Below are positions 6,942 to 36,075 of a DNA stretch of 64,000 nt, piece by piece (position 1 is the first letter of the stretch; every line of letters starts with the position of its first letter). Where the stretch lies: the NCBI GenBank assembly GCA_963773945.1, contig CAVZDD010000003.1, positions 370,060-434,059 on the forward strand, given 5' to 3'. Position numbers and translations under genes: made by a program. This DNA is from an uncultured Thermoplasmata archaeon (GTDB taxonomy: Archaea > Thermoplasmatota > Thermoplasmata > Lutacidiplasmatales > UBA184). Below the pieces are notes generated by a model. The model was not told the DNA's origin. It worked only from the letters and a program-made list of their open reading frames with translations, and did no database searches.

Positions 6942-7984
6942 GGGGACTCGGTTTCTCTGCGCACGGCGGACTCGACAAGGTCGGCTGGGTCGACGTGCCC
7001 CCGCCCGAGCCTGGTCCCGGTGAAGTGCGCGTCCGAGTTCATGCCGCGGCCTTCAATCGGCTCGACCGGTTCGTGCTGGAAGGGATTCCGGGGGTTCCGG
7101 TCGCACTCCCCCATGTGTTGGGGTCGGACGCCTCCGGCGTGGTTGACCGGGTGGGCGACGGCGTCACCGAAGTCGTGCCCGGCGCGGAAGTCCTGGTCAA
7201 CCCGGGCCTCTGGGACGGTACCTGTGAGTACTGTCGTGTGGGCCAGGAATCGCTCTGCCGTAACTATCGGATCCTGGGCGAGCATACCCAGGGCTCGGCG
7301 ACCGAGTTCGTCGTCGTTCCCCCGCGGAATATCTACGCTAAGCCGCCGGCGTGGAGCTGGGCGCAGGCGGCCGCGGCCCCCCTCGTGTTCCAGACCGCGT
7401 GGCGAGCGCTTCGGACCGTCGGCGACGTCCGTCCAGGAGAGACGGTCGCGATCATTGGGGCCGGCGGCGCGGTCGCTCCCGCCGCCATTCAGGTGGCCCA
7501 TCGGCTCGGTGCGCGGGTCGTCGTGGTCGGTCGAACCGCGGAGAAGGTCGAACGCGCGGTGGCCCTGGGCGCCGAGGCCGGCCTCGTCGTGAAGGCCGAG
7601 AAGTCCCACGAACGGCTGCTCTGGGAGTGGAGCAACAAGCGCGGAATCGATGTGATCTTCGATTCGGCCGGCGCGGACACCGTCCCCCGGTCCCTCCGGG
7701 CCCTGGCCCGGGGGGGGCGACTGGTCGTCATCGGAGCCACGGAAGGCCCGAAAGTCGAACTGGACCTGCGGACGCTTTTCTGGCGTCAGGCGTCGATCCG
7801 GGGGAGCACCATGGCCAGCCGGGCCGAGTTCGATGCGGTCTACGCGGAACTGGCGGGGGGACGCCTGCGTCCGATCGTGGACTCCGAATGGGATTGGAAC
7901 CGGGGGGTCGAAGCGTTCCACCATTTGGGGGCGCCCGAGGTCTTCGGAAAGGTGGTCCTCCGGACCGTCGGACCCAGTAGCTGA
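6938..7984 (+). CDS. Zinc-binding alcohol dehydrogenase / MDR-family oxidoreductase
   Basis: GTG start overlaps the cysS stop (GTGA); GroES-like N-domain, a GxGxxG Rossmann motif (AIIGAGGAVAPAAIQVA) and CEYC Zn ligands. The 5' part of the 733-aa track ORF (5783..6937) is spurious. Confidence 0.85.
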   Translation: MRGLGFSAHGGLDKVGWVDVPPPEPGPGEVRVRVHAAAFNRLDRFVLEGIPGVPVALPHVLGSDASGVVDRVGDGVTEVVPGAEVLVNPGLWDGTCEYCRVGQESLCRNYRILGEHTQGSATEFVVVPPRNIYAKPPAWSWAQAAAAPLVFQTAWRALRTVGDVRPGETVAIIGAGGAVAPAAIQVAHRLGARVVVVGRTAEKVERAVALGAEAGLVVKAEKSHERLLWEWSNKRGIDVIFDSAGADTVPRSLRALARGGRLVVIGATEGPKVELDLRTLFWRQASIRGSTMASRAEFDAVYAELAGGRLRPIVDSEWDWNRGVEAFHHLGAPEVFGKVVLRTVGPSS

Positions 7985-8371: not shown

Positions 8372-11300
8372 CATTTCGGTCCATGCCGGCGGCAAACTCA
8401 TCATCGAAAACCTGACGATCGACTGGGTGCAGTTTATCGGCACCTCGGGCACGATCGCCCAGCGCCTCGCCAACGTGTTCTGGTTCAGCGATGCCGGAAC
8501 TACCACCCTCTACAATTCCACGATCACCACCGACCCCTACGTCTTGAACGCCTTCGCCAAGCTCAACGTCTCGGTGACCGGCGAACTCGTCGTCTCGGCG
8601 CACAGCGCCTTCGAGTTCCCCGGATGGGTCACCGTGAGCGCCGGAGGCAGCCTCTTCTTCAACGACAGCACCAGCACGAACAACCCCCAGATCACCGCCG
8701 GAACGGTCAACTCGGCCATCGCCTACGATGAGGCCTGGTCCCCGGCACTCCAGACGGTCGGTGGCGGACAGATCTTCCTCGGCGACAGCATCGTCGAGAA
8801 TTACTACGCCGACAATTACGGCGCGAACGGCGTCCCGGGCCCCCAAATGGTGGGGAACAACGAGACCCAGACCCCGGATTACAATTGGGGCGGTTTCGGC
8901 TTCGCTCCGCCGGTCGCCGAAGGCATCGCCCAGGGATATGCCTGGGAAAAGCAACCAATCGCGAGCGGCATCCTCCAGATCGGCTACGTCACCTTCGCGT
9001 CCTACACCGCTCCCGCCGGGAGCACCTTCTCGTACCAAGGAACGGCCTACCCGCTCGGGTCGATCAACTTCGGCCTCGCCCCTGGGGGGACCCTCATCGA
9101 CGTCCCGCTCGGAGCATCGGCCATCGCTGCCGTCAACGCGGCCGGCGGCGCGGCGCCCTTCCTGCAGAACAGCGGCCAGTTCGGGACCGCCTCCGCGGAG
9201 TCCGCGGCCTTCAACTTCGGCATCAGCGACGTGAACATCACGAGCTTCCAGGTCATTCTCTACCCCGAGTTCCAGTTCAACATCACCGCGAGCGGCGCCG
9301 GTTCCCAGATCACCGCCGCCGACAGCACCCTCGGCATCAACTTCGCCGCCGTACCGGGGACGCCGGTCGCCCTCGGAACCCCGCCGCCGACACCGTGGGA
9401 TTCCCAGAAGCTCCTGGTTTCGGGAGGCGCCAACGCCTACCTCGGGAACATCACGGTCCTCGGGACCCCCTTCCAGCCATTCAACGACTCCTCCGCCGTC
9501 ATCCCGTCGGGGACGAGCCAGGCGTACTTCTACCAGTGGCTCAAGGTTCCGATCACCGGTGGCCGGAACGCCATCCCGGTGGCGAACGGGTCGACCGTCC
9601 CCGTCTACGCTGGCTCTAACGCCACCCTGGCCGCCACCGTCCTGGGCCTCAATGACCTGGCCAGCACCGACCCGATCCTCGCAACTTACGTCTCGGACGC
9701 CCTTGCCGCGCGCGGGCTTGCTCCCTCGGTGTCCGGCGGCGAAGGCGTCTCCTGGAGCATGCTCCTCTCCACCATCGTGGAGAGTTCGTTGCTGCCCACG
9801 GGTCAGTTCGTCGGGGTGTACAACGTCACGGTCACCGTCCCGCCCGGCCTGCCCGGCGAGGTCACCACGGTTGCCGCGTCCCTCACACCGTATCCCCAGG
9901 TCGTCACCCCGGGGTTCCCCTCGACCTCACCTCCGGCGGCCTTCCCCAACTACGAGGCCATCCTGGGCCTGTCGAGCATCCAGTCCCTGGTCCTTAGTGT
10001 AGCGAATACGACGGTGGCGATTGGCCAGACCCTTGTGATCAACGCCACCATCCAGAACCTCGGTACTGCTCCGACCAATAACTACACGGTCGAACTCACC
10101 TACCCCGAGCTCGCGGGCAACATCATAGTCGCGACCTCGGGGCACATCACCGCCCCGATCGCCGCGGGCGCGACCAAGGTCGTGCCGCTGACCTGGCTGG
10201 TCAACGAGACCGTCACCGGGCTTCAGGACAAGGCCCAATTCGTGGTGAGCTTCGGCGTGACGGCGATCTGGAACGGGGGCCTGCCGGATGGCGGCACGAA
10301 CTCGACCTCGATTGCCATCACCATCACCCCCGCCTTCATCTCGATCAGCTACACGCTGCCGACGGGGAAGCTGCCCACCAATACCAACACCATCGATTCC
10401 TCTGGCGTCGCGACCTTCGCCGGGAAGGGCGCCGCTACGCTCACGGTGCTGGCGGTCCGGGGCACCTCGAGCTACGTCCTTGCGGTGTACTCCCCGATCA
10501 CCAGCGGCACGACTTTCGAGACCGACCTCAACGCCGTCTCGGGCATGACGCCGGGCGACACCTACGTCATCTGGCTTCAGGTGACCTACAACGATAGGAC
10601 CTTCACGCAGTCGTACAGCCCCGGCCTCACCGTCGCGGGCAGCACGAGCTCGAACTTCCTGCTGACGAAAATCCTCGGTATCCCGCTCTGGATCTGGCTC
10701 GTCATCGCCGCCGGTATCATCGTCGCCGTCCTGGGCGTCATGTTCGGGCTGGGCCGGTTCGCTCGCGGCCGACTCGTCGAATGCGGCGAGTGCGGGAACC
10801 TCATCCCGGAGGACGCCACCGTGTGTCCGAAGTGCGGGGCCGAGTTCGAGACCGACCTCGTCCGCTGCAGTCGCTGTGGCTCCACGATCCCCTCGTCCTC
10901 GGCTGTCTGTCCGGAGTGCGCCGCGACGCTGCTCGCCCGGGCCGGCCCGGAGAACGCCGATCCGGAGCGCCAGAGCTACGCCGACTTCGTCGAGCGGTTC
11001 CGTACCGAAGCCAAGAAGGAACTCGGGCAGAATTACAGCGAGGGGGCGTTCTGGGACTGGTGGAAGCGCCAGCCGAGCTACGTCTCGTTCAACCAGTGGC
11101 GCCTCCAGCAGGCGCAGGGCACCCGGACCGGCATGACCGCCCCGGTCATGACCGAGGCCGACGACCGCGACGTGACGACCGCGACGGCTCCGAAGCGCCC
11201 ACCCTCCGGTGGCGCCCCGCCCGCCGGAGGGGCCGCCGCCTCCACGGGGAGGGCTCCCGCGTCCCGGACACCCCCGGCCACCCGCACCGCTCCGGCCGCC

Positions 11301-11486
11301 GCGGCGGCACCCGCCAGCCCGGCCGCCTATGTCCCCGCTCCGCAGCCCGCCGCCGCTCCGACGATGTCCGGCGCGGCGCCCGCCATGCCGGCGGGCGCTT
11401 CGGGTATGAAGAACTGCCCCAACTGCGGCAAGCAGATCAACGCGGACTTCCTCGTCTGTCCGTTCTGCGGTTCCGTGACCGGGTAA
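8298..11486 (+). CDS. Large type-I membrane surface (glyco)protein with a cytoplasmic triple zinc-ribbon tail
   Basis: Track ORF 8427..11486; the same frame stays open and protein-like upstream to 8298 (SSLAGQTVVLTPGTTGSSTYYEAGNISVHAGGKLIIENLTIDW). Beta-helix-like, N-glyc sequon-rich ectodomain; TM helix (ILGIPLWIWLVIAAGIIVAVLGVMFGLG); then CGECGN..CPKCG, CSRCGS..CPECA, a Pro/Ala linker and CPNCGK..CPFCG. Confidence 0.75.
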   Translation, partial: SSLAGQTVVLTPGTTGSSTYYEAGNISVHAGGKLIIENLTIDWVQFIGTSGTIAQRLANVFWFSDAGTTTLYNSTITTDPYVLNAFAKLNVSVTGELVVSAHSAFEFPGWVTVSAGGSLFFNDSTSTNNPQITAGTVNSAIAYDEAWSPALQTVGGGQIFLGDSIVENYYADNYGANGVPGPQMVGNNETQTPDYNWGGFGFAPPVAEGIAQGYAWEKQPIASGILQIGYVTFASYTAPAGSTFSYQGTAYPLGSINFGLAPGGTLIDVPLGASAIAAVNAAGGAAPFLQNSGQFGTASAESAAFNFGISDVNITSFQVILYPEFQFNITASGAGSQITAADSTLGINFAAVPGTPVALGTPPPTPWDSQKLLVSGGANAYLGNITVLGTPFQPFNDSSAVIPSGTSQAYFYQWLKVPITGGRNAIPVANGSTVPVYAGSNATLAATVLGLNDLASTDPILATYVSDALAARGLAPSVSGGEGVSWSMLLSTIVESSLLPTGQFVGVYNVTVTVPPGLPGEVTTVAASLTPYPQVVTPGFPSTSPPAAFPNYEAILGLSSIQSLVLSVANTTVAIGQTLVINATIQNLGTAPTNNYTVELTYPELAGNIIVATSGHITAPIAAGATKVVPLTWLVNETVTGLQDKAQFVVSFGVTAIWNGGLPDGGTNSTSIAITITPAFISISYTLPTGKLPTNTNTIDSSGVATFAGKGAATLTVLAVRGTSSYVLAVYSPITSGTTFETDLNAVSGMTPGDTYVIWLQVTYNDRTFTQSYSPGLTVAGSTSSNFLLTKILGIPLWIWLVIAAGIIVAVLGVMFGLGRFARGRLVECGECGNLIPEDATVCPKCGAEFETDLVRCSRCGSTIPSSSAVCPECAATLLARAGPENADPERQSYADFVERFRTEAKKELGQNYSEGAFWDWWKRQPSYVSFNQWRLQQAQGTRTGMTAPVMTEADDRDVTTATAPKRPPSGGAPPAGGAAASTGRAPASRTPPATRTAPAAAAAPASPAAYVPAPQPAAAPTMSGAAPAMPAGASGMKNCPNCGKQINADFLVCPFCGSVTG

Positions 11487-11587: not shown

Positions 11588-12820
11588 GTGACGGGAAACC
11601 TGGAGCTCGGACGGCTCAAGATCGCCTGGGCTCGGAATCACATGCCCGTCCTGGCCGCCATCGAGCGTCGCTTCGTAACCGAGCGACCTCTCGCGGGCAA
11701 GCGGATCTCCGCGGTGCTCCACGTGGAGGCGAAGACCTGCGTCCTGGCGCTGACGCTCAAGGCCGGGGGCGCCGACGTCCGACTCGCGGGAGGCAACCCG
11801 CTCTCCACCGACGATGACACCGTGGCGGCGCTCGTCGAGGCCGGGGTCCCAACCTGGGCCCGGAAGGGCGAATCGATCGAGGAGTACAACGCCGGCATCC
11901 AGGCCATGCTCGACTTCAACCCCGAAGTGATCGTCGACGACGGAGCCGACCTCGTCGCCCTCGCCCATACGGCCCGTAAGGACCGGGGACCCATCCTCGG
12001 GTCGACCGAAGAGACCACGACCGGCGTCACGCGACTGCGGGCGATGGAGAAATCGGGAGCCCTCCACTGGCCGGCGATCGACGTCAATGATGCGTCCATG
12101 AAACATCTGTTCGACAACCGATACGGGTGCGGCCAGTCCTTCCTGGACGGCCTCTTCTCCGCGACGAACCTGTTGGTCGCCGGACGCACCTGCGTCGTCG
12201 CGGGATACGGCTGGGTCGGCAAGGGGATCGCCTCCCGGCTCCGGGGAGTGGGCGCCGACGTCATCGTAACGGAGGTGGACCCGGTGCGCGCCATCGAGGC
12301 CCGGCTCGAAGGGTTCCGCGTCCGTCCGATGCTCGAGGCCGCCGCCGAGGCGGACGTGATCGTGACCACGACCGGCAACCGCGGGATCGTGGGCGCGGAG
12401 CACCTGAAGGTCATCAAGGACGGGTGTCTGTTGGCCAACATGGGACACTTTGACGTCGAGATCTCGAAGCCCGACCTCGCCGCGATGGCGACCCACCGGG
12501 CGATCGTCCGGCCCAACGTCGAGGAATACCGGTTCGGCGACGGACGGAAGGTCTACCTGCTCGGCGACGGACGGCTGATCAACCTGGCCGCCGGCCAAGG
12601 CCATCCGGCGGAGATCATGGACCTCAGCTTTGCACTCCAGGCCCTCTCGGTCGAGTACATCGTCCGTCACGGGACGGAGCTTTCGGCACGGGTCCACCCG
12701 GTGCCCGCCGAGCTGGACCACGCCGTGGCCGAGGCGGCGCTCGGGCCCCTCGGCATTGGCATCGACCGAGCCACGGCGGACCAGACCCGCTATTCCCAGA
12801 GCTGGACCGAGGGAACATGA
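11588..12820 (+). CDS. ahcY: Adenosylhomocysteinase
   Basis: Full-length match to SAHH ([23 protein letters not shown]-binding [11 protein letters not shown]-terminal conserved block). Confidence 0.95.
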
Positions 12821-20812: not shown

Positions 20813-21901
20813 ATGGGGAGCCCCAGTCGCTTCTCCCCGGCCTTGAAGCTACGCGACTCGATTAAGGCTTTCGTCGCCAAACCGCTCGGTCGCATCGCGC
20901 TTCTGATATTCATCGCACTGTGCCTTTCTGGCTCCGCCATCTACCTCGGTTACCTCATCGCGATCCCGGTCTTCTTGCTCGTCGGCCTCGCGCTTCCGAT
21001 CTTCTTGGGCTGGACGCGTCCCCGAACGCTCTTCCTGGTCGGACTGGCGTCGCTGTTGGTCGCCGGGCCGATCGTGACAGCCGGCACGGTGAACTTGCTG
21101 CTCACCCCCTCCCCGGCCGTGAACGGACAGGTGTTCGCGACCCACACCGAGTCCGTGATGCAGAACGCAACCGTTCATCCCTACAGCAGCGCCGGGGCTG
21201 CCAATTTCACCTTCTCCGTCGACGTCAATCCCGCCTTCCTGCCGAGCGGCAGTCACGGCGAAGTACTTTGGATCGACTTCTTCCTCAGCACCTGCCCGAA
21301 CGCGCTCTCGAACAACTCTAGCGCCTGCGGGGGCCTCGGAGCCTACCCTTACCACTTCCAGAACTACTCCTACATGAGCGCCGGACGCCAAACCGTGTCG
21401 TTTCCAGAGCACGTCGGAGGTGTCAACGTCTGGTGGTGGACGATAGGGGCGGCCTATGTCAACTCTACCAATGTGACGACCTGGACCTATCTTCTGCCGG
21501 GCAACGGGTACGTCACCGCCGAAGGACCGGTCACCGGTGACTACCTTTCGATCTACACCCTGATCCTGCCGGCGATTTACTTTACGGTCTTCATCTATCC
21601 CGGACTCGTTTTCTTCCTCGGTCTCCTCGTATACTTGTTCCTCAAGATGCGGCAGCGGCGGCGCTCCGGAGGCGCGCCGTCGGTCCCGGCCCCATCCGTT
21701 CCGTCGACGGAGGCCCCGGTGGAGGGCAGGACGCTCAGCAAGCCTAGCACGTCGGCCCCCTCGAGACCCGAGCTGGCCTGCCCCAAGTGCGGTGCGGTGG
21801 TCTACGCGGGGGAGAGTCGCTGCTGGAAGTGCGGGACCCAGCTTACGCCGATGGAGGCCCCGACCCCCGAGGACGAACCCCTCCCGTCGAGCAAGCCCTG
21901 A
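20813..21901 (+). CDS. Polytopic membrane protein with a glycosylated ectodomain and a C-terminal cytoplasmic zinc ribbon
   Basis: N-terminal TM helices, an N-glyc sequon-rich loop (NAT, NFT, NNSS, NYS, NST, NVT), a TM helix, a basic stretch, then CPKCGAVVYAGESRCWKCG; the start may be a downstream TTG (~20843) if CTTATAT at 20800-20808 is a TATA box. Confidence 0.65.
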   Translation: MGSPSRFSPALKLRDSIKAFVAKPLGRIALLIFIALCLSGSAIYLGYLIAIPVFLLVGLALPIFLGWTRPRTLFLVGLASLLVAGPIVTAGTVNLLLTPSPAVNGQVFATHTESVMQNATVHPYSSAGAANFTFSVDVNPAFLPSGSHGEVLWIDFFLSTCPNALSNNSSACGGLGAYPYHFQNYSYMSAGRQTVSFPEHVGGVNVWWWTIGAAYVNSTNVTTWTYLLPGNGYVTAEGPVTGDYLSIYTLILPAIYFTVFIYPGLVFFLGLLVYLFLKMRQRRRSGGAPSVPAPSVPSTEAPVEGRTLSKPSTSAPSRPELACPKCGAVVYAGESRCWKCGTQLTPMEAPTPEDEPLPSSKP

Positions 21902-21963: not shown

Positions 21964-24384
21964 TTAGGTGAAGGTGATCCCCAAGTTGGTGACGTAGTAG
22001 TTGTACTGGTTGTTGAGCGTGAAGTAGTCGACCGGCGAGGTCGAGAGGACGAACGAGAACACGTAGGTCCCGGCCGTCGGGGCCTGCCAGGTGAGCGTCA
22101 CCCACGAATCGACCCCGTTGCCCGACTCCACAGCCGTGGCCGTGACGTAGCTGCCCTGGTAGAGGACCGGGACGCCGTTCACCAGCAGCGAGACCGTGAG
22201 GATGCCGTTCGAGATGTCGTTCGCTCGAAGGTTGACTAGGAAGCTGCTCGGCGCGGTGTGGACGGTTCCGGCAAGCAGGGCCCCGGCAATGCCGAAGTCG
22301 GTACCGGACCGAGTCACCGCCGACGAGGTTGCAAAGCCGCAGAGGTAGTTCATCACGTTGTACGTCACGGCCGTTCCGATGGCGTTCCACGAGGTGCCCG
22401 CGGGGGCGTCCCCGAACTGGACCGGGTCCGCCCCGATGGCGACTCCCTTCCCCGCGCCGCCGGTACCGGTGTAGAAGATCCCGAGCGTGTTGGCCCCGAG
22501 GGCCAGGAACGCCGTTCCCACGTGGCCGCCGGAGGCGGTGTACGTCTGGTAGTTGAGGTAGGTCGCCAGCGCCGACGCAGTGCCGCTCACGTTGCCGTTG
22601 AGCGTGATCGGTGAGCTGATGCCCTGGCTATAGAAGCCGGAAGCGGTCGTGGCCGTGTAGGTGACCGAGGAATAGTCCGCGGGGGAGGCGGACAGCGCGT
22701 GCGCCGTAACGCACGTCGCACCGGCGCTGATCCCGAAGTCCTGGAGGTAGGTCGTGTAGGTTGCTGTGTTGCACGCGAGGGAGGCGGTGGGCCAGAAAGC
22801 GCGGTCGCCCACGACCCAGACCGACGCCCCGGCCCCTACTGCGGTCTCTAGGTAGTAGCTCGCCGAATGCGCGTACCCTGCGGGAGTGGTGTAGGACGGT
22901 CCCACTGGGCAGCCCGAGTTGGTCGAGTTCGTCCCAAAGTCCACGATGAGGACCGTTCCCGCAACGAAGTACTGGGTGACCAGGGCCGCCGCGAAGCTCC
23001 CGTTGGTGCAGGAGTTAACGTAGGTTTTGAACGGGAAACCCGCCGCAGTGAGCTCGCTCGCAAGGTTGGACGACTCGTTGCTCTTCGAGAGGGGGATGTT
23101 GCCGGGCTGGTTGTACGAGATCAGGAGGATCGGGGGAAACACCGTCAGTGCATAGGAATCGGAGCCTGTTCCGAGTCCGGGGATCGAGGCCGTCGCGTTG
23201 AGCAGCAGGGCACCGGTCGCCGTAGGCGTGTAGGTGGCCTGGAAGCCGGCCGTCGCACCGGCAGGAACCGAGCCGGACGCGCTGCTTCGACTGAAGCCGG
23301 CGGCCGGTCCGAAGGAGACGGCAGCTGTCCCGGCGACTTGACCGTTGTTCGTGACCTCCACCGTCACGTTGAGTTTCTGGTTGATGACCGGCACGCTCGT
23401 ATTGGTGAGGATTTGGACGATGACCAATGTGCTTCCGCCTCCGCTGCCGCTAGCTGAGACGGTGATCGGGAAGATGATCGAATTTTGCTGGGTCTGGATC
23501 GGGTTCGAGTCCGTCACCCAAGCGGTCACATAGTACGTGCCCGAGGTGGCCGTGGTGCAGCTCGGGACGAACCAGAGACCATTCGTGGCGTTGTAGGTCA
23601 TCTGGAGTTTGTTGGTAGTGTTGGACGAGTAAGCTGACAGCGGGTTCACGCACGACAGGCCGGGGGTCGTGATATTGAGGTAGACCTGCTTGCTCGAGGT
23701 GCGAAGGAACGGGTCGCTAATCTGGACGAACACGGAGAACGGCGAGTTCACGAACGGCGCGCCGGGGCTCGTGCCCTGCGCAATGAAGATCGGAGGGTTC
23801 GTGGGGTTGCTACCGGGGAGGGTCTGTCGGTATACGACCAGGCTGTCCGAGACGATCGTGACGGTGATGTTGTCGGGAATGGTCAGGTGGTCCCCTGCCA
23901 GACTGAGATTCCAAACCTGGCCCGTCCCCCAGGGCGTCGACGACGACGCGCCGAGACCACCACTGGTCATCGTGTACGTGGCGGTAGTGTTCTGGGGATG
24001 CGCTTGAGAAACTACGTAAAAGACGGTGTTGAAATTGTAGAGGATCGGGCCGCCGAGGTGGGTGACGGTGACCGAGCTGACGTTGGTCCAGGTGTGGGCT
24101 CCCTTCGTGATGTAGGAATAGAACAGCTGCCCCTGGAACTGACCGGCCGGCTGCGGAGCCGGCTTGGGGAACGTGCTGACAAAGAAGAAGATCGAGGAGA
24201 ATAGCGTGACGGTCAGCGCCAGAATCAGAATCGTTCCGAGCACCTCGGAAACGGCCCGTTTCCCCCGGAGCGACCGGGAGCGCGTACGGAGGCGATGCTT
24301 CGATTGACGCTGCACTCGAATGGCCCTCCTGCCCCTAGATAGCCCGCGCGGACGAGCCTTCTGAAATTGATTGAGGGGCCGCAT
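21964..24384 (-). CDS. Large surface adhesin-like glycoprotein with a class III (type IV pilin-like) signal peptide
   Basis: N-terminus ...RGKRAVSEVLGTILILALTVTLFSS has the prepilin-peptidase motif ([KR]G/A-hydrophobic helix); ~750-aa S/T/N-rich beta-rich body with many N-glyc sequons. True start probably the GTG at 24315, because the track ATG (24384) abuts a TATATA element. Confidence 0.75.
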   Translation of the reverse strand: MRPLNQFQKARPRGLSRGRRAIRVQRQSKHRLRTRSRSLRGKRAVSEVLGTILILALTVTLFSSIFFFVSTFPKPAPQPAGQFQGQLFYSYITKGAHTWTNVSSVTVTHLGGPILYNFNTVFYVVSQAHPQNTTATYTMTSGGLGASSSTPWGTGQVWNLSLAGDHLTIPDNITVTIVSDSLVVYRQTLPGSNPTNPPIFIAQGTSPGAPFVNSPFSVFVQISDPFLRTSSKQVYLNITTPGLSCVNPLSAYSSNTTNKLQMTYNATNGLWFVPSCTTATSGTYYVTAWVTDSNPIQTQQNSIIFPITVSASGSGGGSTLVIVQILTNTSVPVINQKLNVTVEVTNNGQVAGTAAVSFGPAAGFSRSSASGSVPAGATAGFQATYTPTATGALLLNATASIPGLGTGSDSYALTVFPPILLISYNQPGNIPLSKSNESSNLASELTAAGFPFKTYVNSCTNGSFAAALVTQYFVAGTVLIVDFGTNSTNSGCPVGPSYTTPAGYAHSASYYLETAVGAGASVWVVGDRAFWPTASLACNTATYTTYLQDFGISAGATCVTAHALSASPADYSSVTYTATTASGFYSQGISSPITLNGNVSGTASALATYLNYQTYTASGGHVGTAFLALGANTLGIFYTGTGGAGKGVAIGADPVQFGDAPAGTSWNAIGTAVTYNVMNYLCGFATSSAVTRSGTDFGIAGALLAGTVHTAPSSFLVNLRANDISNGILTVSLLVNGVPVLYQGSYVTATAVESGNGVDSWVTLTWQAPTAGTYVFSFVLSTSPVDYFTLNNQYNYYVTNLGITFT

Positions 24385-24517
24385 ATATAGAGGTTCGGCC
24401 GCGGCGCGCCCGACGCCGATCGTTCGGCGGTTCCGTGGGGACCCTCATGCGTATTGATACGTGTCGCACTCGGACCCCCATTTCCGGTCAAATTCTGGGC
24501 TGGTTATACTGCCGGGA

Positions 24518-24535
24518 TCCGCGATTCATCGCGGA
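24518..24535. promoter_or_regulatory. Perfect 18-bp palindrome TCCGCGATtcATCGCGGA (candidate operator)
   Basis: 8-bp arms and a 2-bp spacer in the 274-bp lower-GC divergent intergenic region upstream of the RHH gene. Confidence 0.35.
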
Positions 24536-24622
24536 AAGTGCGAGTCCAAATTTTGTTCGACACCTCAGAAAAGCGCGCTTCCGATGCCCATCTTCAGTTC
24601 TCGCCACAGCGTTGGGAATGAG

Positions 24623-24631
24623 TTTAAGTAA
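24623..24631 (+). promoter_or_regulatory. TATA-like box (TTTAAGTAA) for a leaderless RHH transcript
   Basis: Lies 28-36 nt upstream of the GTG at 24659. Confidence 0.35.
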
Positions 24632-24658: not shown

Positions 24659-25162
24659 GTGTTCGACAAAACCCCAGACACCAGAACGGACGCTTCGGTG
24701 CCGAAGCGCACGTCCCGGCGGCCCCCCGAAGATGAGCGGATCGCCCTACGGTGCAACCGCAGGGAGCTCCAGCTCTTGGATACGTTCGTTAGCAGCGGCG
24801 AGTTCGAGAGTCGGTCGGAGCTCATGCGCGCGGCGCTCCGCGCCTTTCTCCGGACCCGGACCGAGTCTGCAGTCCTGACCCCCCCGACCCCCACCCCGAC
24901 GGGACTCATCGAAGCTCCCGTTCGCCTCCGACAGGATGAGGTGGAGACCTTCCGCGAGTACGGCGCCCTCGTCTCCAACGACCAGCCGTTGAACGACGTG
25001 CTGGCCCAGCTGGTCCGACGCGGTGCGCTGGAGCTCCAGGTCTCGGAGTTGGTCGCCCGCGCCCGCGGTGACGTGCGCAAGGCGGCGGAGGCTCGAGCCC
25101 AGGTCCAGGCCCTCGAAACGAGTGGGCGTGACCTGGAACGACAAGGGGTCGTGGGCCGGTAG
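24659..25162 (+). CDS. Ribbon-helix-helix (CopG/Arc/MetJ-like) DNA-binding protein with a C-terminal coiled-coil
   Basis: ERIALRCNRRELQLLDTFVSSGEFESRSELMRAALRAFL is a beta-strand/helix/helix RHH core; followed by a Pro/Thr linker and a heptad-like Ala/Arg/Glu-rich segment; 35 nt upstream of the FtsZ-like gene. Confidence 0.6.
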   Translation: MFDKTPDTRTDASVPKRTSRRPPEDERIALRCNRRELQLLDTFVSSGEFESRSELMRAALRAFLRTRTESAVLTPPTPTPTGLIEAPVRLRQDEVETFREYGALVSNDQPLNDVLAQLVRRGALELQVSELVARARGDVRKAAEARAQVQALETSGRDLERQGVVGR

Positions 25163-25196
25163 GGTTGTCGAGGCGGTACAGGAAAGGGGTGGCGAA

Positions 25197-26123
25197 ATGC
25201 CTGAGGCCGAACCGAACGGGAGAGACACCGACCAACTGATGGGCCGGGACGACGACTTCGATCCCGGGTTCCTCGAGAACCTGAAGCTGGGACACGATGT
25301 CCGTTTCGTTCTCGTCACCGTCGGAGGCGGCGCAGCCCGAATCGGTCGAGAGATCGCTCGCCGACATCTCCGCTACGTCGAGACCGTCGCCATCAACTGC
25401 GACGCGCGCATCCAGGAGTTCGAAGAGTTCGACCGCCGGGTCTGCCTGACCACGGACAGCCCGGATGCCGAGGACACGGGGGGTTCTCCCGTGGCCGGTG
25501 GGCATCTGGCGCGCTCCGCGCAGCCGGCGCTGGATCGGATCTTCGAAGGCGCCACGTTCGTCACGATCATCTCGACCCTAGGCGGCGGTGCCGGAACCGG
25601 TGCGCTGCCCTTCGTCCTCGAAGCGGCCGCTCGCTCATGTGAGGTCCTGTCGGTGTTCGTCGTCAAGCCGTTCAAGCTCGAGGCGGAACGCCGCGCCGTG
25701 GCGGACCGGGCCCTCGCCCGGCTCCACTTCGTGGACAGCTTTGTAGCGCTGCAGCAGCGGGGACTCGCGACCCTCCAGGTCCTGGACAACGAGACCCTGG
25801 CAAAGGATGCGGGCAAGATCCCGATCGCACGGTTCAACACTTACTGGTCCGAGTTCATCGCGAGCCACATCGAGAAGTCGTTCGTGGCACCCGCCGAAGC
25901 CGCCGTGGAGGCGGGGCGCCTGGCCATGCTCGCCGACCCGACGCATGCCGGACGAATCCCGTCGGAACCGGAGATCGTGGGACACGCCATGCCGGCCCCG
26001 ATGCCCGAACGCCCCTCGCTGGAACCCCCCGGAATGCCCGGCCCGTTGCCGGCCGCCTCCTCGGAGATCGAACTCACCTTCGAAGTCGTCGGACTGCCCC
26101 CCGGCGGGCAGGAGCTCCTTTGA
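25197..26123 (+). CDS. Divergent FtsZ/tubulin-superfamily GTPase (GTPase domain only, no FtsZ C-terminal domain or T7 loop)
   Basis: Real start at an ATG inside the track ORF (25023..26123), preceded by AGGGGTGG. Motifs VRFVLVTVGGGAARIG (G-box), AINCDARI and ISTLGGGAGTG (tubulin signature with Thr replaced by Ala); VVKPFKLEAERR resembles FtsZ TKPFxFEGxxR; Pro-rich C-terminal tail. Confidence 0.75.
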   Translation: MPEAEPNGRDTDQLMGRDDDFDPGFLENLKLGHDVRFVLVTVGGGAARIGREIARRHLRYVETVAINCDARIQEFEEFDRRVCLTTDSPDAEDTGGSPVAGGHLARSAQPALDRIFEGATFVTIISTLGGGAGTGALPFVLEAAARSCEVLSVFVVKPFKLEAERRAVADRALARLHFVDSFVALQQRGLATLQVLDNETLAKDAGKIPIARFNTYWSEFIASHIEKSFVAPAEAAVEAGRLAMLADPTHAGRIPSEPEIVGHAMPAPMPERPSLEPPGMPGPLPAASSEIELTFEVVGLPPGGQELL

Positions 26124-26169
26124 CCGTCCACAAGTAGGCGACCCCGGACGAGCGACTGTTGCCCCGACC

Positions 26170-26188
26170 GGGCACCGGACCGGTGCCC
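26170..26188 (+). terminator. Perfect 9-bp inverted repeat GGGCACCGGaCCGGTGCCC downstream of the FtsZ-like gene
   Basis: 47 nt after the stop codon; followed by TAATATTAT (26199-26207), a candidate TATA box for the next small ORF. Confidence 0.4.
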
Positions 26189-26252
26189 GCCGGTCGCGTA
26201 ATATTATCAGGGGTGCCGGCTACCCCCTCCCGTGGACGGCCGAATCCTCGTT

Positions 26253-26411
26253 GTGGCATTGACCCTCGCACTCCCCGCGGCCCTGATCGCCGCGACGGTC
26301 GCCTGGTACTCGACCAATCCGGTATCGCTGCTGATCCTGTTCTCCGTGATGCTTCTCGGCGGCCTCTACCTGCTCTCCTACAGCGATACCTTCTCCGCGA
26401 ATCCGGCGTAG
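26253..26411 (+). CDS. Small 52-aa two-TM membrane peptide (not in the ORF track)
   Basis: GTG start; VALTLALPAALIAATVAWYSTNPVSLLILFSVMLLGGLYLLSYSDTFSANPA is two hydrophobic helices around a polar turn; own TATA ~50 nt upstream; same strand as the RHH/FtsZ-like pair. Confidence 0.4.
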   Translation: MALTLALPAALIAATVAWYSTNPVSLLILFSVMLLGGLYLLSYSDTFSANPA

Positions 26412-26441: not shown

Positions 26442-27212
26442 CTACTGGTAGATCGGCAGGTTCTCGGTACCCGGGGCCCCCGCCGGAGCGGAGGGACGAC
26501 TCTTGACCGCGGCGCGCAACGCCCGCTCGATCATTTCGGCCTGGGTGCGGAGCGGCTTCGTGTCGATCTGGACGTGGGGAAGCAGCTGGTCGATGACCTC
26601 GATGAGCTTCGCCGCGGCCCGGTGGTCGGGGTAGCCCGCGTCGGTGGCACTCACGAGCAGCGTCCCGATCGGAAGTTTCGAGCCCATCCCCTGCACGAGT
26701 AGTGCTCCGGAGACACCGCCAATCACTCCGTCGCCCATCGCCCGGACCCCTGCGGTCTTGTATTTCGCTGGCAACTCCTCGGTCGAGCCCGAGCCGGCGT
26801 ACCATACCATCTCCTCAGACGGAGTCGCCTCCGCGTCCTCGGGGTCCAACGGGTGGGGAACCACCCCTTCGAGACCAAGAATGGCCGACACCTGCAACTG
26901 CGCCGCCATGTCCAGGATGGTCATGGCCAGCGGGTTGATCATCGAGGGCGGGAGTGGAAACTCGGACACTACGAGGACGATGTCCTTGTTCCCGTACGCA
27001 CGCACCGGCGGATTGACTCGTCCGCCTTGAATGACCGCCAGCGGTGGGAATTCCTCGGAGGTGAGGGCCCCCAAGCGGGGAAGCTTGAGCATCTGAAGCA
27101 TGTAGTGCCCCGCGACGGTCGGCGCGAGACCGCCGCTCGGGAAGCAGCTGATGAGTACGGCCCCGGGGGCCGGCAAGACCGCCGAGCTTTCCGGACGCCA
27201 GAGGACCGGCAT
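26442..27212 (-). CDS. PAC2-family proteasome assembly chaperone (PbaA/PbaB-like) with a C-terminal HbYX motif
   Basis: PAC2-family core; the C-terminus ends ...LPIYQ (hydrophobic-Tyr-X), the proteasome alpha-ring docking motif. Confidence 0.7.
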   Translation of the reverse strand: MPVLWRPESSAVLPAPGAVLISCFPSGGLAPTVAGHYMLQMLKLPRLGALTSEEFPPLAVIQGGRVNPPVRAYGNKDIVLVVSEFPLPPSMINPLAMTILDMAAQLQVSAILGLEGVVPHPLDPEDAEATPSEEMVWYAGSGSTEELPAKYKTAGVRAMGDGVIGGVSGALLVQGMGSKLPIGTLLVSATDAGYPDHRAAAKLIEVIDQLLPHVQIDTKPLRTQAEMIERALRAAVKSRPSAPAGAPGTENLPIYQ

Positions 27213-27330
27213 AGGATACTCCAGCCGGCAATCCCCGGTGCGTACTTAGGGGTTGGGACAGTTTCCATTTCGGCGGACCGGTGCGGGGACGGCTCAAAGG
27301 CCAAGTACCCACCGCCGCCTGCCGAGCGCC

Positions 27331-28365
27331 GTGGGGCTTCCCCTCCGCGACATCACGCATCCCGCCGAGGTACCGTGGTCGGCCCTCGTCGGGCGCACTC
27401 TCGCGGTCGACGGGAACAACATGCTCTACCAGTTCCTGGCCACCATCCGTTCGGCCGATGGCCGACCCTTCACCGACCGCAACGGCCGGGTCACAGCCCA
27501 TCTGATTGGACTTCTCTACCGGACGACTTCGTGGTTGGAGCAGCAGATCCGACCTGTCTGGGTCTTCGATGGCCGACCGCCGGATCTGAAAGCCGGCACA
27601 CTTCGCACCCGATTCTTGGCCAAGGAACGCGCCCAGGAGGCGTGGGACGAGGCGCTGGCCGCTGGGGACCTCGAGACCGCGCGGAGAAAAGCCGCGCAAA
27701 CGTCCCGGCTCACGCGCCCGATGATCGAGGAAGCCGTCCAAGTGCTCCACGCGCTGGGACTCCCGACGGTCCAGGCTCCGTCGGAGGGCGAGGCCCAGGG
27801 CGCGCGCATGGCTGCCTCAGGGACGGTGTGGGCGAGCGCCTCAGAGGATTACGACTCGTTGCTATTCGGCACCCCTCGATTGGTCCGAGGACTCGGTTCC
27901 CGCCAGCGAAAGACCGGAACGCAGGCCGCGCAATTGATCGAGCGTGAGCGCTTGCTCGAGGAGCTCGGAATCTCGCAGGAGGAGCTGATCCTCGTCGGGT
28001 TGCTCATCGGGACCGATTTCAACGACGGCGCACGCGGGTACGGACCGAAGAAGGCGCTCAAACTGGTCCAGAAGCACCTGGGGTGGGAGGCCACGCTGAA
28101 GACCGTGGGCCTCGAGCCGAAGGACGTCGAGGAGGCGGCCGAGATCTTCCGGAATCCTCCGGTCGCCGAAATCCCGCCGCCCGTGTTCGGCGAGCCGAAC
28201 GAGGACGATCTCCGACGTCTCCTGATCGCCGAGCACGACTTCTCGGAGGACCGGGTGCTCGGGGCCCTCCACCGTATCCGGTCCGCGCCGCGACGGAAAG
28301 CCACCCCGCTCCCCACCCCGGGACGTCAACAACTTCTCGATGTCTACCCGACGGATGGATCTTGA
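27331..28365 (+). CDS. fen: Flap endonuclease 1
   Basis: MGLPLRDI...LAVDGNNMLYQFL; XPG-N/XPG-I nuclease domains and H3TH; start refined to the GTG at 27331 (track 27253 extends 26 codons into R-rich sequence). Confidence 0.9.
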   Translation: MGLPLRDITHPAEVPWSALVGRTLAVDGNNMLYQFLATIRSADGRPFTDRNGRVTAHLIGLLYRTTSWLEQQIRPVWVFDGRPPDLKAGTLRTRFLAKERAQEAWDEALAAGDLETARRKAAQTSRLTRPMIEEAVQVLHALGLPTVQAPSEGEAQGARMAASGTVWASASEDYDSLLFGTPRLVRGLGSRQRKTGTQAAQLIERERLLEELGISQEELILVGLLIGTDFNDGARGYGPKKALKLVQKHLGWEATLKTVGLEPKDVEEAAEIFRNPPVAEIPPPVFGEPNEDDLRRLLIAEHDFSEDRVLGALHRIRSAPRRKATPLPTPGRQQLLDVYPTDGS

Positions 28366-33420: not shown

Positions 33421-34265
33421 GTCGCGGCCCCCACGGACATCCGGGTCCCACCCGCCGCCTCGAAGAACTCCTTGGGGGACGTATCTACCCCCAATCGACG
33501 GAAGTACCGAGCGAAGTTGGTCGCATCGCGCTGGAGCAGTTCCTTGGCTTGCGGATGGTCCGTCGCGAGGGCCTGGGCCACATCGATGATCACGGGGCGG
33601 TCTTCCAAGACGAGCACGTTGTACGGCGACAGGTCGCCGTGGACCAAATGGGCGTTCACGACCATCCGATTCAGTTGCGCGGTCAGGTCTGCGTACACGG
33701 CCTCGGGGTCCTGAAGGACGACCTCCTGCATCGGCGGCGCGGGGAGTCCTTCCGCACCGACGAATTCCATGACCAAGACGTTCCGGAAGCAGGCATAAGG
33801 TTGGGGAACCCGCACATCTGCCGCTCGTAACTGGGTCAGGACCGTGTGCTCCCGGCGAGTCCACGCGAAGATCATCCGTGAAGTGTTCCCCATCGCACCG
33901 ACCTCTCGCCGGAGCCACTCAATCACGTAGGGGGGTACGTGCCGGAAGATCGTGTTGCCGATCCGGTAGATCTTGACAGCTCGGTAGCCCTCCGGACCGC
34001 TCGCCCGGAACACGCCGCCTTCCTTGCCGGTCGAGATTGGGTAGTCGACGCTCTGGAATTGACCCTGGTTCACGAGACGTCCGATCGCGAGCAATGTCGC
34101 GTGATCGAAGAACTCGTCGACGAGCTTCCGCTGTTGACGCTCCTTGCGACGGTCCTCTACCCGCTCGGCACGAGTCGGATAGAGCAGTTCCTCGGGATCG
34201 GGCACCCCAGGCGAAGCCCGACACGGGGCCAAAACGGTTCGCCCCCTTCGGGAGATGAAGCCCAC
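33417..34265 (-). CDS. RIO-type serine/threonine protein kinase
   Basis: STGKEGGVFRA (glycine loop), LVHGDLSPYNVLV (catalytic loop) and IIDVAQ (metal-binding DFG equivalent); conserved archaeal pairing with Dim2-like KH protein. Confidence 0.85.
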   Translation of the reverse strand: MGFISRRGRTVLAPCRASPGVPDPEELLYPTRAERVEDRRKERQQRKLVDEFFDHATLLAIGRLVNQGQFQSVDYPISTGKEGGVFRASGPEGYRAVKIYRIGNTIFRHVPPYVIEWLRREVGAMGNTSRMIFAWTRREHTVLTQLRAADVRVPQPYACFRNVLVMEFVGAEGLPAPPMQEVVLQDPEAVYADLTAQLNRMVVNAHLVHGDLSPYNVLVLEDRPVIIDVAQALATDHPQAKELLQRDATNFARYFRRLGVDTSPKEFFEAAGGTRMSVGAAT

Positions 34266-34326
34266 GACCCCTTCCGACGCCCGAACCCCTTATGCGTCCA
34301 CTTTTCATCCGCCCGTGAAGGAAACC

Positions 34327-34803
34327 ATGATCGATGCCGCGAACTTGGCGATCAGCGCCACGCTGATCATCGTGGGGAGCGCACTCTTTGCGTTCGAGCT
34401 CATTCACCCTGGCGCCTGGCTCCTGATCCCCGCCTCGATCATGATCGTCGCGGGACTTCTGTATCTGGTTCTCCCTTCGCTCCTCCTCAATTCGGCTTTC
34501 GGGCCCGCGATCGTGGTGCTCGTGGCGCTCGGCGCGGCCATTGCGACGATCCCGTACTACCGGTGGGTGGCCCCCACCCATGAACCGATGAGCACGACCG
34601 TGCATTCGTTGAGGGGAGCTATGGGAATCGTCGTCGTCCCCGTTGTTCCCGACTCGTTGAGCGGCAAGGTCCAGATCCAATCCGAGGTCTGGTCGGCCCG
34701 TGGCGAACAAGCGATTCCGATGGGGACGCGGGTCACGGTAGTCTCCGGCGAGGGCGTGAGCGTGCTCGTTCGACCGCTCGAAGGCGCAGGAACAGAAAAC
34801 TAA
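34327..34803 (+). CDS. NfeD-family membrane protein (stomatin operon partner)
   Basis: Two to three TM helices then an OB-fold-like C-terminus (GKVQIQSEVWSARGEQAIPMGTRVTVVSGEGVSVLVRP); ATG at 34327 preceded by GAAGGAAA; directly upstream of the SPFH gene. Confidence 0.7.
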   Translation: MIDAANLAISATLIIVGSALFAFELIHPGAWLLIPASIMIVAGLLYLVLPSLLLNSAFGPAIVVLVALGAAIATIPYYRWVAPTHEPMSTTVHSLRGAMGIVVVPVVPDSLSGKVQIQSEVWSARGEQAIPMGTRVTVVSGEGVSVLVRPLEGAGTEN

Positions 34804-34815
34804 GGAAGAAGAACC

Positions 34816-36075
34816 ATGGTCGACCCGGTTGCACTCACCCTAATCTCTGTCTTTGTCGTGGCCATCATCCTGATTCTGATCAATCGGGCGGTCTACCAGA
34901 TCCAGCCGTATCAGAACGGGATCGTGACCTTGCTCGGGTCCTTCAAGCGGATCCTCAATCCCGGTCTAAACATCGTGAGTCCCCTCGCCCTCGTGATCAA
35001 GCTCGACCTGCGGACGCAGGTTCTCGAGGTACCGCGACAGGAGGTCATCACCAAGGACAACTCGCCGACGAACGTCGACGCCATCATTTACATCAAGGTC
35101 GTGGACGCGCCCAAGGCAATCTTCCAGGTCCAGGACTACCACATCGCCACCGTGGCACTCGCCCAGACGACACTCCGGTCCGTCATCGGAGACATGGAAC
35201 TCGACGAGGTGCTCTACAACCGGGAACGGATCAATGCCCGACTGCGGGACATACTCGACCAGTCCACCGACAAATGGGGGGTGCGCGTCGAAGCGGTCGA
35301 GATCAAGGAGGTCGACCCGGTCGGCCCCGTCAAGGCCGCGATGGAGGAGCAAACCTCCGCGGAACGGCAGCGGCGGGCCGCCGTGCTGCGCGCCGACGGA
35401 GAGAAGCGGTCGGCCATTCTGGTCTCCGAGGGCCAGAAGCGATCGCGCATTCTACAGGCCGAGGGCCTGCGGCAATCCAAGATCCTCGAAGCCGAGGGCA
35501 CCCGGCTCGCGACCATCCTCGAGGCGCAGGGAGAGTCCCAACGTCTCCGGATCCTTGCCCTCGGAGCCGGTACTTTGGACTCGAAGGCCTTGACCGTACT
35601 CTCGCTGGATACCCTCTCGAACGTGGGCAACGGACAGGCCACGAAGATCATCTTCCCGTTCGAGCTCTCCCGCCTGATGGAGGGCGCGTCGGAGTACCTC
35701 GGCATGGCGCGAACCGTTCCTGACCGGAGCCTCAGCACGATGGACGAGCTCGAAGCCCGGATCGGCAAGATGGACGATGTCTTGGGACCCATCCCCCGGC
35801 AAGAGGAACTGGACACCGAGATCAAATCCATCGAAGCCGAGATCAAGGCGGAGACAGACGAATCCGTGGCGATGGTCGGTCCCATCGGCGGGACCGCCGC
35901 CCGCGCCGACACGACGGACCTCCCAGACCCCCTAGGCCAACGCCGGTCCGCCCCTCCGCCCTCGTTCGGAGTGGCGCAGTCCTCGGGAGCGTCTCCGTCG
36001 ACCGAATCCAGTGAAGGCGCCCACGACTTTACCAGTGCGACGGACCCCCGGCGACGAAAGGCCCCGCCCAGTTAA
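34816..36075 (+). CDS. SPFH/band-7 (stomatin/prohibitin-like) protein
   Basis: N-terminal TM helix, SPFH core and a long heptad-repeat tail (QRRAAVLRADGEKRSAILVSEGQKRSRILQAEGLRQSKILEAEG...). Confidence 0.85.
   Translation: MVDPVALTLISVFVVAIILILINRAVYQIQPYQNGIVTLLGSFKRILNPGLNIVSPLALVIKLDLRTQVLEVPRQEVITKDNSPTNVDAIIYIKVVDAPKAIFQVQDYHIATVALAQTTLRSVIGDMELDEVLYNRERINARLRDILDQSTDKWGVRVEAVEIKEVDPVGPVKAAMEEQTSAERQRRAAVLRADGEKRSAILVSEGQKRSRILQAEGLRQSKILEAEGTRLATILEAQGESQRLRILALGAGTLDSKALTVLSLDTLSNVGNGQATKIIFPFELSRLMEGASEYLGMARTVPDRSLSTMDELEARIGKMDDVLGPIPRQEELDTEIKSIEAEIKAETDESVAMVGPIGGTAARADTTDLPDPLGQRRSAPPPSFGVAQSSGASPSTESSEGAHDFTSATDPRRRKAPPS

Follow-up and report, generated by a model that had tools for sequence, protein, structure and literature searches.

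Why would an archaeon keep a gene for an FtsZ-like protein that has lost its C-terminal half, and why does a gene for a DNA-binding protein precede it? These questions are raised by a locus in a 64-kb stretch of genomic DNA (64,000 nucleotides, hereafter the window) from an uncultured Thermoplasmata archaeon. Three open reading frames (ORFs) follow one another there on the forward strand, coding for a protein of 167 amino acids (aa) that is of the ribbon-helix-helix (RHH) type, an FtsZ-like protein of 308 aa and a membrane peptide of 59 aa. They had been picked out in a first-pass annotation, made from the sequence without database searches, which proposed a three-gene module for DNA segregation or membrane remodelling. 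The three ORFs could be confirmed (coordinates in Table 1). On balance, we favour the view that these genes represent a lineage-specific offshoot of cdrS-ftsZ2, a known archaeal cell-division operon, with a likely role in division; the truncated FtsZ2 would cap or modulate FtsZ filaments and the RHH protein would regulate its own expression.

A truncated, probable FtsZ2

The assignment of the 308-aa protein to the FtsZ fold, already made from its motifs, is supported by the Pfam Tubulin profile, by Foldseek and by profile comparison with solved structures. The Pfam profile (PF00091) is matched over residues 49-181 with 43.4 bits, which passes the gathering score of 33. The ftsZ profile TIGR00065 is matched with 71 bits, compared to a cutoff of 295, and only between residues 34 and 198, corresponding to profile positions 17-181. 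When solved structures were searched with phmmer, FtsZ alone was matched, again over only part of the query (residues ~26-205). An AlphaFold model was computed from an alignment of 39 sequences (predicted local distance difference test score, pLDDT, of 78); it shows strands S1-S6 and a long helix H7, followed by disorder. Foldseek, suggested in the first-pass annotation as a check, matched this model to FtsZ crystal structures over ~200 columns with an E-value (E) of 1e-11.

The protein belongs to a family of more than 160 sequence clusters, mostly of ~300-310 aa, all from Thermoplasmata metagenome-assembled genomes (MAGs). An exhaustive profile search among 1.8 billion representative sequences returned 21 family members at 149-462 bits, followed by generic FtsZ at no more than 109 bits. 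Databases call such proteins hypothetical or plain 'FtsZ'; the description of the protein as uncharacterised is correct. The products of the 308-aa and 59-aa ORFs are themselves exact matches to WCB18_05525 and WCB18_05520 from a Thermoplasmata MAG, both annotated as hypothetical and carried by a contig of 2.0 Mb.

The nucleotide-loop motifs that had been quoted for the 308-aa protein were all found, namely VGGGAARIG (loop T1), AINCD (T2), GGGAGTG (T4) and KPFKLEAERR (T5). Loops T1 to T6 are conserved throughout the family (T1 GGG, T2 NxD, T4 GGGxGTG, T5 PFxxExxRR, T6 DN), and residues G43/G44, N67, G129/G130/G133/G135, P158/F159/E162 and N198 are invariant. An alanine had been noted in the T4 loop, at the position of a phosphate-contacting threonine. 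This alanine is peculiar to the window protein and is not a family trait; many members have threonine at this position.

The absence of the C-terminal domain and of the T7 loop became equally evident: there is no match to FtsZ_C, the NxDxxD motif does not occur, and the model is disordered past H7. This helix (residues 210-245, nucleotides (nt) 25824-25931) is ~10 residues longer than usual, is modelled with high confidence and contains the invariant residues P232 and E234. The stretch that follows reads xPAEAxxEAxR and is modelled as a helix; the acidic residue at the Asp-equivalent position is not conserved. The tail had been described as Pro-rich. This is correct for a variable linker, but the protein ends in a conserved peptide of the form (D/E)-A-E-L-T-F-E-V ... 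G-P-x-L, of which ELTFEV is encoded at nt 26070-26087 in the window. A fragment of a split or canonical FtsZ, with the C-terminal domain lying nearby, had been named as a possible objection and was rejected, as the 64-kb window holds no further FtsZ-like segment and the relatives all have the same length.

Within the tubulin superfamily, the protein is, as far as sequence comparison can tell, FtsZ proper. The family profile matches FtsZ structures with E 5e-18 to 7e-10 and those of PhuZ, TubZ/RepX and CetZ with E 0.09-0.5 (RepX/TubZ 0.11, PhuZ 0.09-0.1, CetZ 4b45 0.24 and 4b46 0.4), and an affinity to TubZ, PhuZ, CetZ or tubulin was therefore rejected. Nor could a proposed resemblance to the GTPase-only FtsZ-like families be upheld. 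FtsZl1 and FtsZl2 (Makarova and Koonin 2010, PMC2875224) are likewise divergent and uncharacterised FtsZ-superfamily GTPases without the canonical C-terminal domain. However, the window protein has no match at E<=1 to the FtsZl1 profile (Pfam Tubulin_2, PF13809; PMC2875224, PMC9871819), and neither vWA nor OmpA domains occur among the neighbours scanned. T6 and H7, which are not identifiable in FtsZl1, are clear in the window protein, and it is much nearer to true FtsZ.

Among FtsZ proteins, the affinity is to FtsZ2. The S6 motif of the family, VLDNE(T/S)L, resembles VLDNNRL of cdrS-linked FtsZ2, whereas FtsZ1 and bacterial FtsZ have IPNDxL. A hidden Markov model (HMM) of FtsZ2 scored higher than one of FtsZ1 and bacterial FtsZ for all eight family representatives. 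A neighbour-joining tree of 254 columns with 100 bootstraps recovers the family as monophyletic (100%) and does no more than place it outside the clade of FtsZ1 and bacterial FtsZ (96%). We conclude that the gene is, by these comparisons, probably a descendant of ftsZ2 that has kept the nucleotide-binding domain, H7, a linker and a tail peptide and has lost the GTPase-activating C-terminal subdomain together with the catalytic loop T7.

The RHH partner and the cdrS-ftsZ2 operon

The pairing of an RHH gene with an ftsZ gene is accounted for by a known operon, which had not been considered in the first-pass annotation. The gene cdrS codes for an RHH regulator, is co-transcribed with ftsZ2 and is syntenic across Euryarchaeota (PMC7439475); ftsZ2 was also reported to occur 'frequently with parD' (Pende et al., PMC8178401). 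We compared 80 metagenomic loci around FtsZ, of which 56 code for a canonical FtsZ2 (VLDNNRL and SLINLDYAD) and 24 for FtsZ1 or bacterial FtsZ (IPNDxL), and searched them with an HMM of the RHH family of the window. A small RHH ORF, matched with E 5e-16 to 9e-5, was found directly upstream in 46 of the 56 FtsZ2 loci and in none of the 24 FtsZ1 or bacterial loci; of the ten FtsZ2 loci without it, five are at a contig edge. Six FtsZ loci from brine metagenomes (L047, L048, L050, L052, L055, L060) have an extra ORF of 200-246 aa upstream of cdrS-ftsZ2, with a weak match to the RHH profile; this fits the haloarchaeal cdrL described by Darnell et al.

In the window, the RHH gene is on the same strand as the FtsZ-like gene and is separated from it by 34 nt (25163-25196), one less than had been given. 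The RHH gene is found upstream of the FtsZ-like gene in all 25 loci of the surrounding clade, for which one genome per species was scanned and which includes Ca. Lutacidiplasma silvani and Lutacidiplasmatales MAGs. What had been taken for a coiled-coil tail of the RHH protein turned out, in alignment and model, to be a second RHH module plus a long helix. The modules extend over residues ~26-71 and ~85-125, and the C-terminal helix reaches residue 161. Both termini of the family are invariant, with MFD... at the start and ...GVVGR at the end.

Among NCBIfam families, CdrS (NF058555) scores highest with the RHH proteins from each of three lineages (E 6e-8 to 1e-5; window protein 1e-5). For CdrS a single RHH of ~60 aa is expected, while the window protein has two modules in 167 aa. 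By position and homology it is CdrS-like, yet it is no CdrS equivalog. A fold search with the model of the RHH protein gave nothing significant, with the RHH antitoxin ParD1 on top at E 2.1. An intermediate state exists in a Thermoplasmata MAG, where a 105-aa tandem RHH protein is encoded upstream of a full-length FtsZ2 with FtsZ_C. The first gene of the locus is, judged by these alignments, a CdrS-type RHH gene that has turned into a single-chain tandem with a long helical tail.

The locus thus has several features in common with cdrS-ftsZ2 of Halobacterium salinarum and Haloferax volcanii (PMC7439475, PMC8406309): an RHH gene directly upstream, which is probably co-transcribed, a homologous RHH module, and the FtsZ2 signature VLDN. 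It differs in that a 167-aa tandem RHH protein with a helix takes the place of the single-RHH cdrS product of ~55-80 aa found upstream of canonical ftsZ2, in the lack of FtsZ_C and T7, and in the C-terminal peptide, which is (D/E)LTF...GPxL and not the GID-type motif (PMC8178401).

Other FtsZ proteins lacking a C-domain, of 246-303 aa, also emerged from the search among representatives. With a profile built on them a large family was recovered, most of whose members come from Methanomassiliicoccales; Ca. Methanomassiliicoccus intestinalis is among the sources. At all six places examined in Methanomassiliicoccales and relatives, the short ftsZ is preceded by a same-strand gene for a protein of 122-148 aa. 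The five of these proteins with DNA all match the HMM of the window RHH family (E 4e-12 to 4e-37) and can also be aligned to it. The gene surroundings of the distant pairs are unrelated to those of the window. As only this pair persists outside the clade, the conserved unit consists of two genes, coding for a long RHH protein and a short FtsZ, and the proposed three-gene module had to be abandoned.

The Methanomassiliicoccales proteins (e.g. WP_400207237.1 from Ca. Methanomassiliicoccus intestinalis) share with the window protein the nucleotide-binding domain, H7, an acidic or Pro-rich linker, the tail peptide, the absence of a C-domain, the tandem-RHH gene upstream and homologous tail motifs. 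The form of the tail peptide that is common across the orders is (D/E)(L/M)TF ... (G/N)PxL(L/M). They differ from it in being closer to canonical FtsZ (134-151 bits for Pfam Tubulin, compared to 43 for the window protein), in lacking the 10-residue insert after H5, in a length of 246-296 aa, and in having no adjacent 59-aa membrane peptide.

A further observation concerns the RHH proteins of Methanomassiliicoccales (L026, 5562-5930; L028, 5462-5908). Their tails end in (F/L)E(V/I)(I/V), as in PFEVIER and TLEIVP, and thus resemble ELTFEV of the FtsZ tail. The RHH tails and the FtsZ tail may have a common partner, or one might be a mimic of the other.

Candidate binding sites of the RHH protein lie at its own promoter. 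Of 26 loci, 24 have the heptamer TTCGACA, which is part of the TGTTCGACA box, at -101 to -103 relative to the RHH start codon; every one of the 26 has it at +3, and four have a third copy at -123. Exact TGTTCGACA occurs only three times in the 64 kb, twice at the RHH promoter. The third copy, at 12108, lies inside the gene for S-adenosylhomocysteine hydrolase and was dismissed as a coding coincidence. Perfect palindromes had been pointed out in the same upstream region; they are real (24518-24535 and 24571-24580) but are not conserved in relatives, which makes the TTCGACA boxes the better operator candidate.

Most of the 25 loci have a TATA-like box (TTTAAGTA, TTTAAATA or TATAAGTA) ~30 nt ahead of the RHH start codon, and from this spacing the RHH mRNA would be near-leaderless. 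No TATA-like box is found in the 34-nt gap between the two genes, which speaks for co-transcription; the RHH gene is thus probably part of the FtsZ-like transcript, as had been assumed.

Proposed capping of filaments and alternative roles

In archaea that have no rigid wall, FtsZ2 is held to be the driver of constriction. In FtsZ filaments, the contacts of the upper subunit (H10, S9, H8 and T7) are all in the C-terminal half (PMC8936486), while the lower subunit provides T3, T5, H1/H2 and the H6-H7 loop. The window protein has kept the elements of the lower subunit and none of those of the upper subunit. Those kept include D69 (conserved in at least 90% of the family) and R166 (invariant), the counterparts of D46 and R143 of Staphylococcus aureus FtsZ, which touch the T7 loop of the subunit above (PMC8936486). 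Growth of FtsZ filaments takes place at their T7-exposing end, and they are capped by subunits with bottom-face defects or by MciZ (PMC8936486, PMC9897490). In H. volcanii FtsZ2, the Asp of the T7 loop (D231) is required for function (bioRxiv 10.1101/2020.06.04.133736).

We propose the following mechanism. The truncated FtsZ2 would still bind GTP and would offer only its nucleotide ('top') face to other FtsZ molecules. With only this face left, it could neither activate hydrolysis in a neighbour nor accept a further subunit. Sitting at the end where canonical FtsZ filaments grow, it would act as a cap or modulator. Alternatively, it may serve as a GTP-dependent adaptor whose tail peptide docks onto a partner such as SepF, the peptide possibly corresponding to the tail by which archaeal FtsZ binds SepF. 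The RHH protein would bind the TTCGACA boxes at -103 and +3, which bracket its own promoter, and would autoregulate the bicistronic mRNA. A single chain with two RHH modules could build the two-stranded ribbon alone, and the long C-terminal helix could pair two such units. The distance between the boxes is ~105 bp, or about ten helical turns, and would suit looping by a dimerised tandem RHH protein.

In its predicted faces the protein resembles known filament cappers, namely engineered or mutant FtsZ with a defective bottom face: the top face appears intact and a functional bottom face is missing, a combination that is reported to block growth of FtsZ filaments at their growing end (PMC8936486, PMC9897490). 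However, it is no mutant, but a natural, conserved and operon-encoded paralogue, and its capping is a prediction. It also differs from MciZ, a small peptide inhibitor that binds the bottom interface of FtsZ.

Several points weigh against this interpretation. In loop T1, Arg stands in place of the nucleotide-contacting Asn of FtsZ (N25 in S. aureus), and for this reason GTP binding is not certain. The FtsZ2 affinity of the window protein itself has a small margin (73.1 bits with the FtsZ2 HMM, 70.1 with the FtsZ1/bacterial HMM), and the neighbour-joining tree leaves the place of the family among FtsZ2 unsettled, on a long branch. The CdrS matches of the RHH proteins, at 25-33 bits, are far below the cutoff of 100, and the TTCGACA box at +3 is also constrained by coding for the invariant Met-Phe-Asp. 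Most importantly, a cap must dock on an FtsZ that has T7, and the capping model fails without such a protein in the same cell. There is no second FtsZ in the 64-kb window, and the support for coexistence comes from relatives alone, namely Ca. Methanomassiliicoccus intestinalis. For this species, which has the short form, Pende et al. give SepF and three FtsZ homologues; coexistence is thus indicated for Methanomassiliicoccus only. The supplements of the Lutacidiplasmatales paper make no mention of FtsZ, SepF, tubulin, Vps4, CdvB or ESCRT.

A stronger form of the capping proposal can be put forward tentatively. Thermoplasmatota may possess a dedicated natural 'half-FtsZ', a built-in cap or terminator that is tethered by its tail, sits at the growing end and is co-expressed with an enlarged CdrS. 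In its radical version, where canonical FtsZ is lacking, the half-FtsZ might be the sole FtsZ-type division factor and assemble in a new mode. We regard this as possible rather than probable.

As an alternative to capping, the 59-aa peptide might anchor the truncated FtsZ to the membrane via the ELTFEV tail and form with the RHH protein a single remodelling or division system. The two-helix membrane peptide is real, but its annotation had to be corrected: it starts with GTG at 26232, has 59 aa instead of 52 and begins 108 nt past the stop codon of the FtsZ-like gene instead of ~130 nt. The GTG start is kept in 22 relatives. The sequence is strongly conserved, all 23 available versions having 54-61 aa, an MDGR start, an SNP turn and a YLL(S/T)Y motif. 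The small membrane gene follows the FtsZ-like gene, with PAC2 and FEN1 downstream, in all 22 clade loci that reach far enough, even where identity of the FtsZ-like protein is down to 50%. However, adjacency within this Lutacidiplasmatales-like clade says little about function, because the entire neighbourhood, including the pilin-like, PAC2 and FEN1 genes, is equally syntenic. The peptide gene has its own promoter, as had been suggested, with a conserved AT-rich box (AACATTATCA, GTTAAGAGG or CTTATGAGG) ~25-30 nt before the start in 22 relatives. In three loci of one subclade (L009, L014 and L021), ~0.7 kb is inserted between the FtsZ-like and the peptide gene; the insert in L009 carries an opposite-strand ORF of 182 aa (6923-7471, minus strand), by eye similar to NUDIX proteins. 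In ~90 other loci with short or canonical ftsZ2, no match to an HMM of the peptide was found (best E 0.17). In one of the distant loci (L112), a different two-helix ORF of 66 aa is convergent to the short ftsZ (4897-5097, minus strand). This could be counted in favour of a membrane module, but it has no match to the peptide HMM and the similarity is maybe a coincidence. A functional link of the peptide to the RHH-FtsZ pair is possible, unsupported as it is by the distribution, and we consider the membrane module unlikely.

It is similarly doubtful that the truncated protein forms filaments of its own through a new interface, such as the extended H7, possibly as the only FtsZ-type division protein of the lineage. 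The length of H7 with its invariant P232 and E234 would be in line with this, as would the statement that every member of the FtsZ-tubulin superfamily characterised by 2010 is a filament former (Makarova and Koonin, PMC2875224). For some Methanomassiliicoccales (Methanomethylophilaceae), Pende et al. list none of FtsZ, SepF and ESCRT-III, which leaves room for overlooked short forms. However, T7, H8, S9 and H10 of the upper-subunit interface are all missing (PMC8936486), acidic residues are not conserved at the T7-equivalent position, and the short FtsZ of Methanomassiliicoccus coexists with other FtsZ homologues and SepF.

The truncated FtsZ might also act as a GTP switch, binding to the tail of the tandem RHH protein and tuning the transcription of division genes according to its GTP or assembly state. 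The long RHH proteins accompany short FtsZ at six of six places, while the full-length FtsZ2 loci examined have RHH proteins of ~55-105 aa; the RHH C-terminus is invariant, and the RHH tails of Methanomassiliicoccales resemble the FtsZ tail motif. Correlation is the whole basis of this proposal, however, and the conservation of D69 and R166 is better explained by a contact to the T7 loop, so that we consider a switch quite improbable.

That the gene is a functionless, pseudogenised ftsZ2 in decay is very hard to reconcile with its conservation. Half of the protein has been lost, and the Pfam score is low (43 bits, compared to ~150 for canonical or Methanomassiliicoccales short forms). However, more than 160 clusters have kept the length, the invariant nucleotide-loop residues and the tail peptide, the architecture is kept in a second order, and the Shine-Dalgarno-like element and operon structure are conserved.

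TubR is a winged-helix protein, not an RHH protein, and tubC is an iteron centromere. Type III segregation by TubZ/TubR, or partition of a mobile element, which the first-pass annotation had inferred from the order of a DNA-binding gene directly before a gene for a tubulin-like GTPase and to which the repeated upstream boxes might be added, is effectively refuted: TubZ/RepX and PhuZ show no significant relation to the family profile (E ~0.1, compared to 5e-18 for FtsZ), the adaptor candidate is a CdrS-type RHH protein, two to three 7-nt boxes are no iteron array, the locus lies among chromosomal housekeeping genes with synteny across the whole order, and the half required for polymerisation is missing.

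Surroundings of the locus and implications

The features of the locus are compiled in Table 1. The chromosomal housekeeping setting that had been recognised is borne out by the pilin-like, PAC2, FEN1 and metabolic genes nearby, in an order-wide syntenic arrangement. More distant genes of the window code for S-adenosylhomocysteine hydrolase, GcvH, phosphoenolpyruvate synthase, phosphoglycerate mutase, formiminotransferase, the primase small subunit and a RIO kinase. Rfam and tRNA scans of the window were empty.

Table 1 Features of the RHH/FtsZ-like locus and its immediate surroundings, in positions of the window.
Feature	Position	Strand	Remarks
806-aa protein, archaeal pilin N-terminus	21964-24384	-	
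Conserved non-coding box CATGCGTATTGATACGTGTCGCAC	24446-24469	.	pilin/RHH intergenic region; kept in close relatives (L001-L006 and L023), partly in others
Conserved box GGTTATAC	24502-24509	.	~150 nt before RHH start; in 24 of 26 upstream regions, read by eye
Distal TGTTCGACA box	24554-24562	+	TTCGACA at -103; putative operator for the RHH protein
TATA-like box TTTAAGTA	24623-24630	+	RHH/FtsZ-like operon; conserved
Tandem RHH protein, CdrS-like, 167 aa	24659-25162	+	Pfam RHH_8/RHH_1, NCBIfam CdrS, family alignment, model
Proximal TGTTCGACA box	24660-24668		TTCGACA at +3; overlaps codons 1-4 of the RHH gene
Shine-Dalgarno-like GGGGTGG	25186-25192	+	before FtsZ-like gene; in most loci, or near variant GGGGAG, GGGGGG
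FtsZ2-derived protein, 308 aa	25197-26123	+	N-terminal tail, GTP-binding domain, extended H7, Pro-rich linker, C-terminal peptide
GC-rich hairpin CGGGCACCGG-A-CCGGTGCCCG	26169-26189	+	perfect, 10+1+10; after FtsZ-like stop, before peptide promoter
TATA-like box TAATATTAT	26199-26207	+	membrane-peptide gene; near-leaderless separate unit
59-aa protein, two hydrophobic helices	26232-26411	+	MDGR...SNP...YLLSY
PAC2 proteasome-assembly chaperone	26442-27212	-	
FEN1	27253-28365		

Between the divergent pilin-like and RHH genes, two further conserved boxes were found. In the two loci without GGTTATAC, the one-base variants GGATATAC or TGTTATAC occur in its place. The GGTTATAC box may be a promoter element for either of the divergent genes, and both boxes may serve the 806-aa pilin-like gene. 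The operon mRNA may have its 3' end at the hairpin behind the FtsZ-like gene; GC-rich inverted repeats are found at the same spot in some relatives, with arms of 16 nt in L007, though not in all.

Elsewhere, the window codes for a 1019-aa protein with double zinc-ribbon domains (8427-11486, plus strand) and for a 362-aa protein (20813-21901, plus strand) whose C-terminus weakly matches a zinc ribbon (E 8e-4, short of the Pfam cutoff). The zinc-ribbon proteins CdrL and CdpC act in haloarchaeal division, and distant CdpC-like proteins are reported from Thermoplasmatota (bioRxiv 10.64898/2026.07.16.738847). Downstream of the locus, at a distance of 8 kb, there is a gene pair for NfeD and an SPFH/Band-7 protein (34255-36075, plus strand), an ordinary membrane scaffold. 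It is the sole other membrane-organisation module among the window genes scanned.

While this type of operon is known, the variant with a short FtsZ2 and an enlarged tandem-RHH CdrS is apparently undescribed; in the literature searched, no description of an FtsZ2 without C-domain was found for Thermoplasmatota. Besides the Lutacidiplasmatales-like clade, the variant was found in Methanomassiliicoccales and in other metagenomic lineages that are unassigned. Surveys of archaea with a working FtsZ system can be misled, because short forms are labelled 'hypothetical' or 'FtsZ' in databases. CdrS-type regulators vary in architecture, being single, tandem, or tandem plus helix, and the locus adds, from outside the haloarchaea, a definite candidate for the operator of a cell-cycle regulator.

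The variant keeps the frame of the cdrS-ftsZ2 operon and drops the very half of FtsZ2 on which filament formation and the triggering of GTP hydrolysis depend. Possible consequences are that archaeal division employs subunit-like caps or modulators, that the nucleotide-binding domain of FtsZ2 has a job independent of filaments, or that a new mode of assembly exists. If a half-FtsZ does act as a cap, this would represent an unrecognised way to control the dynamics of tubulin-family polymers by a truncated subunit.

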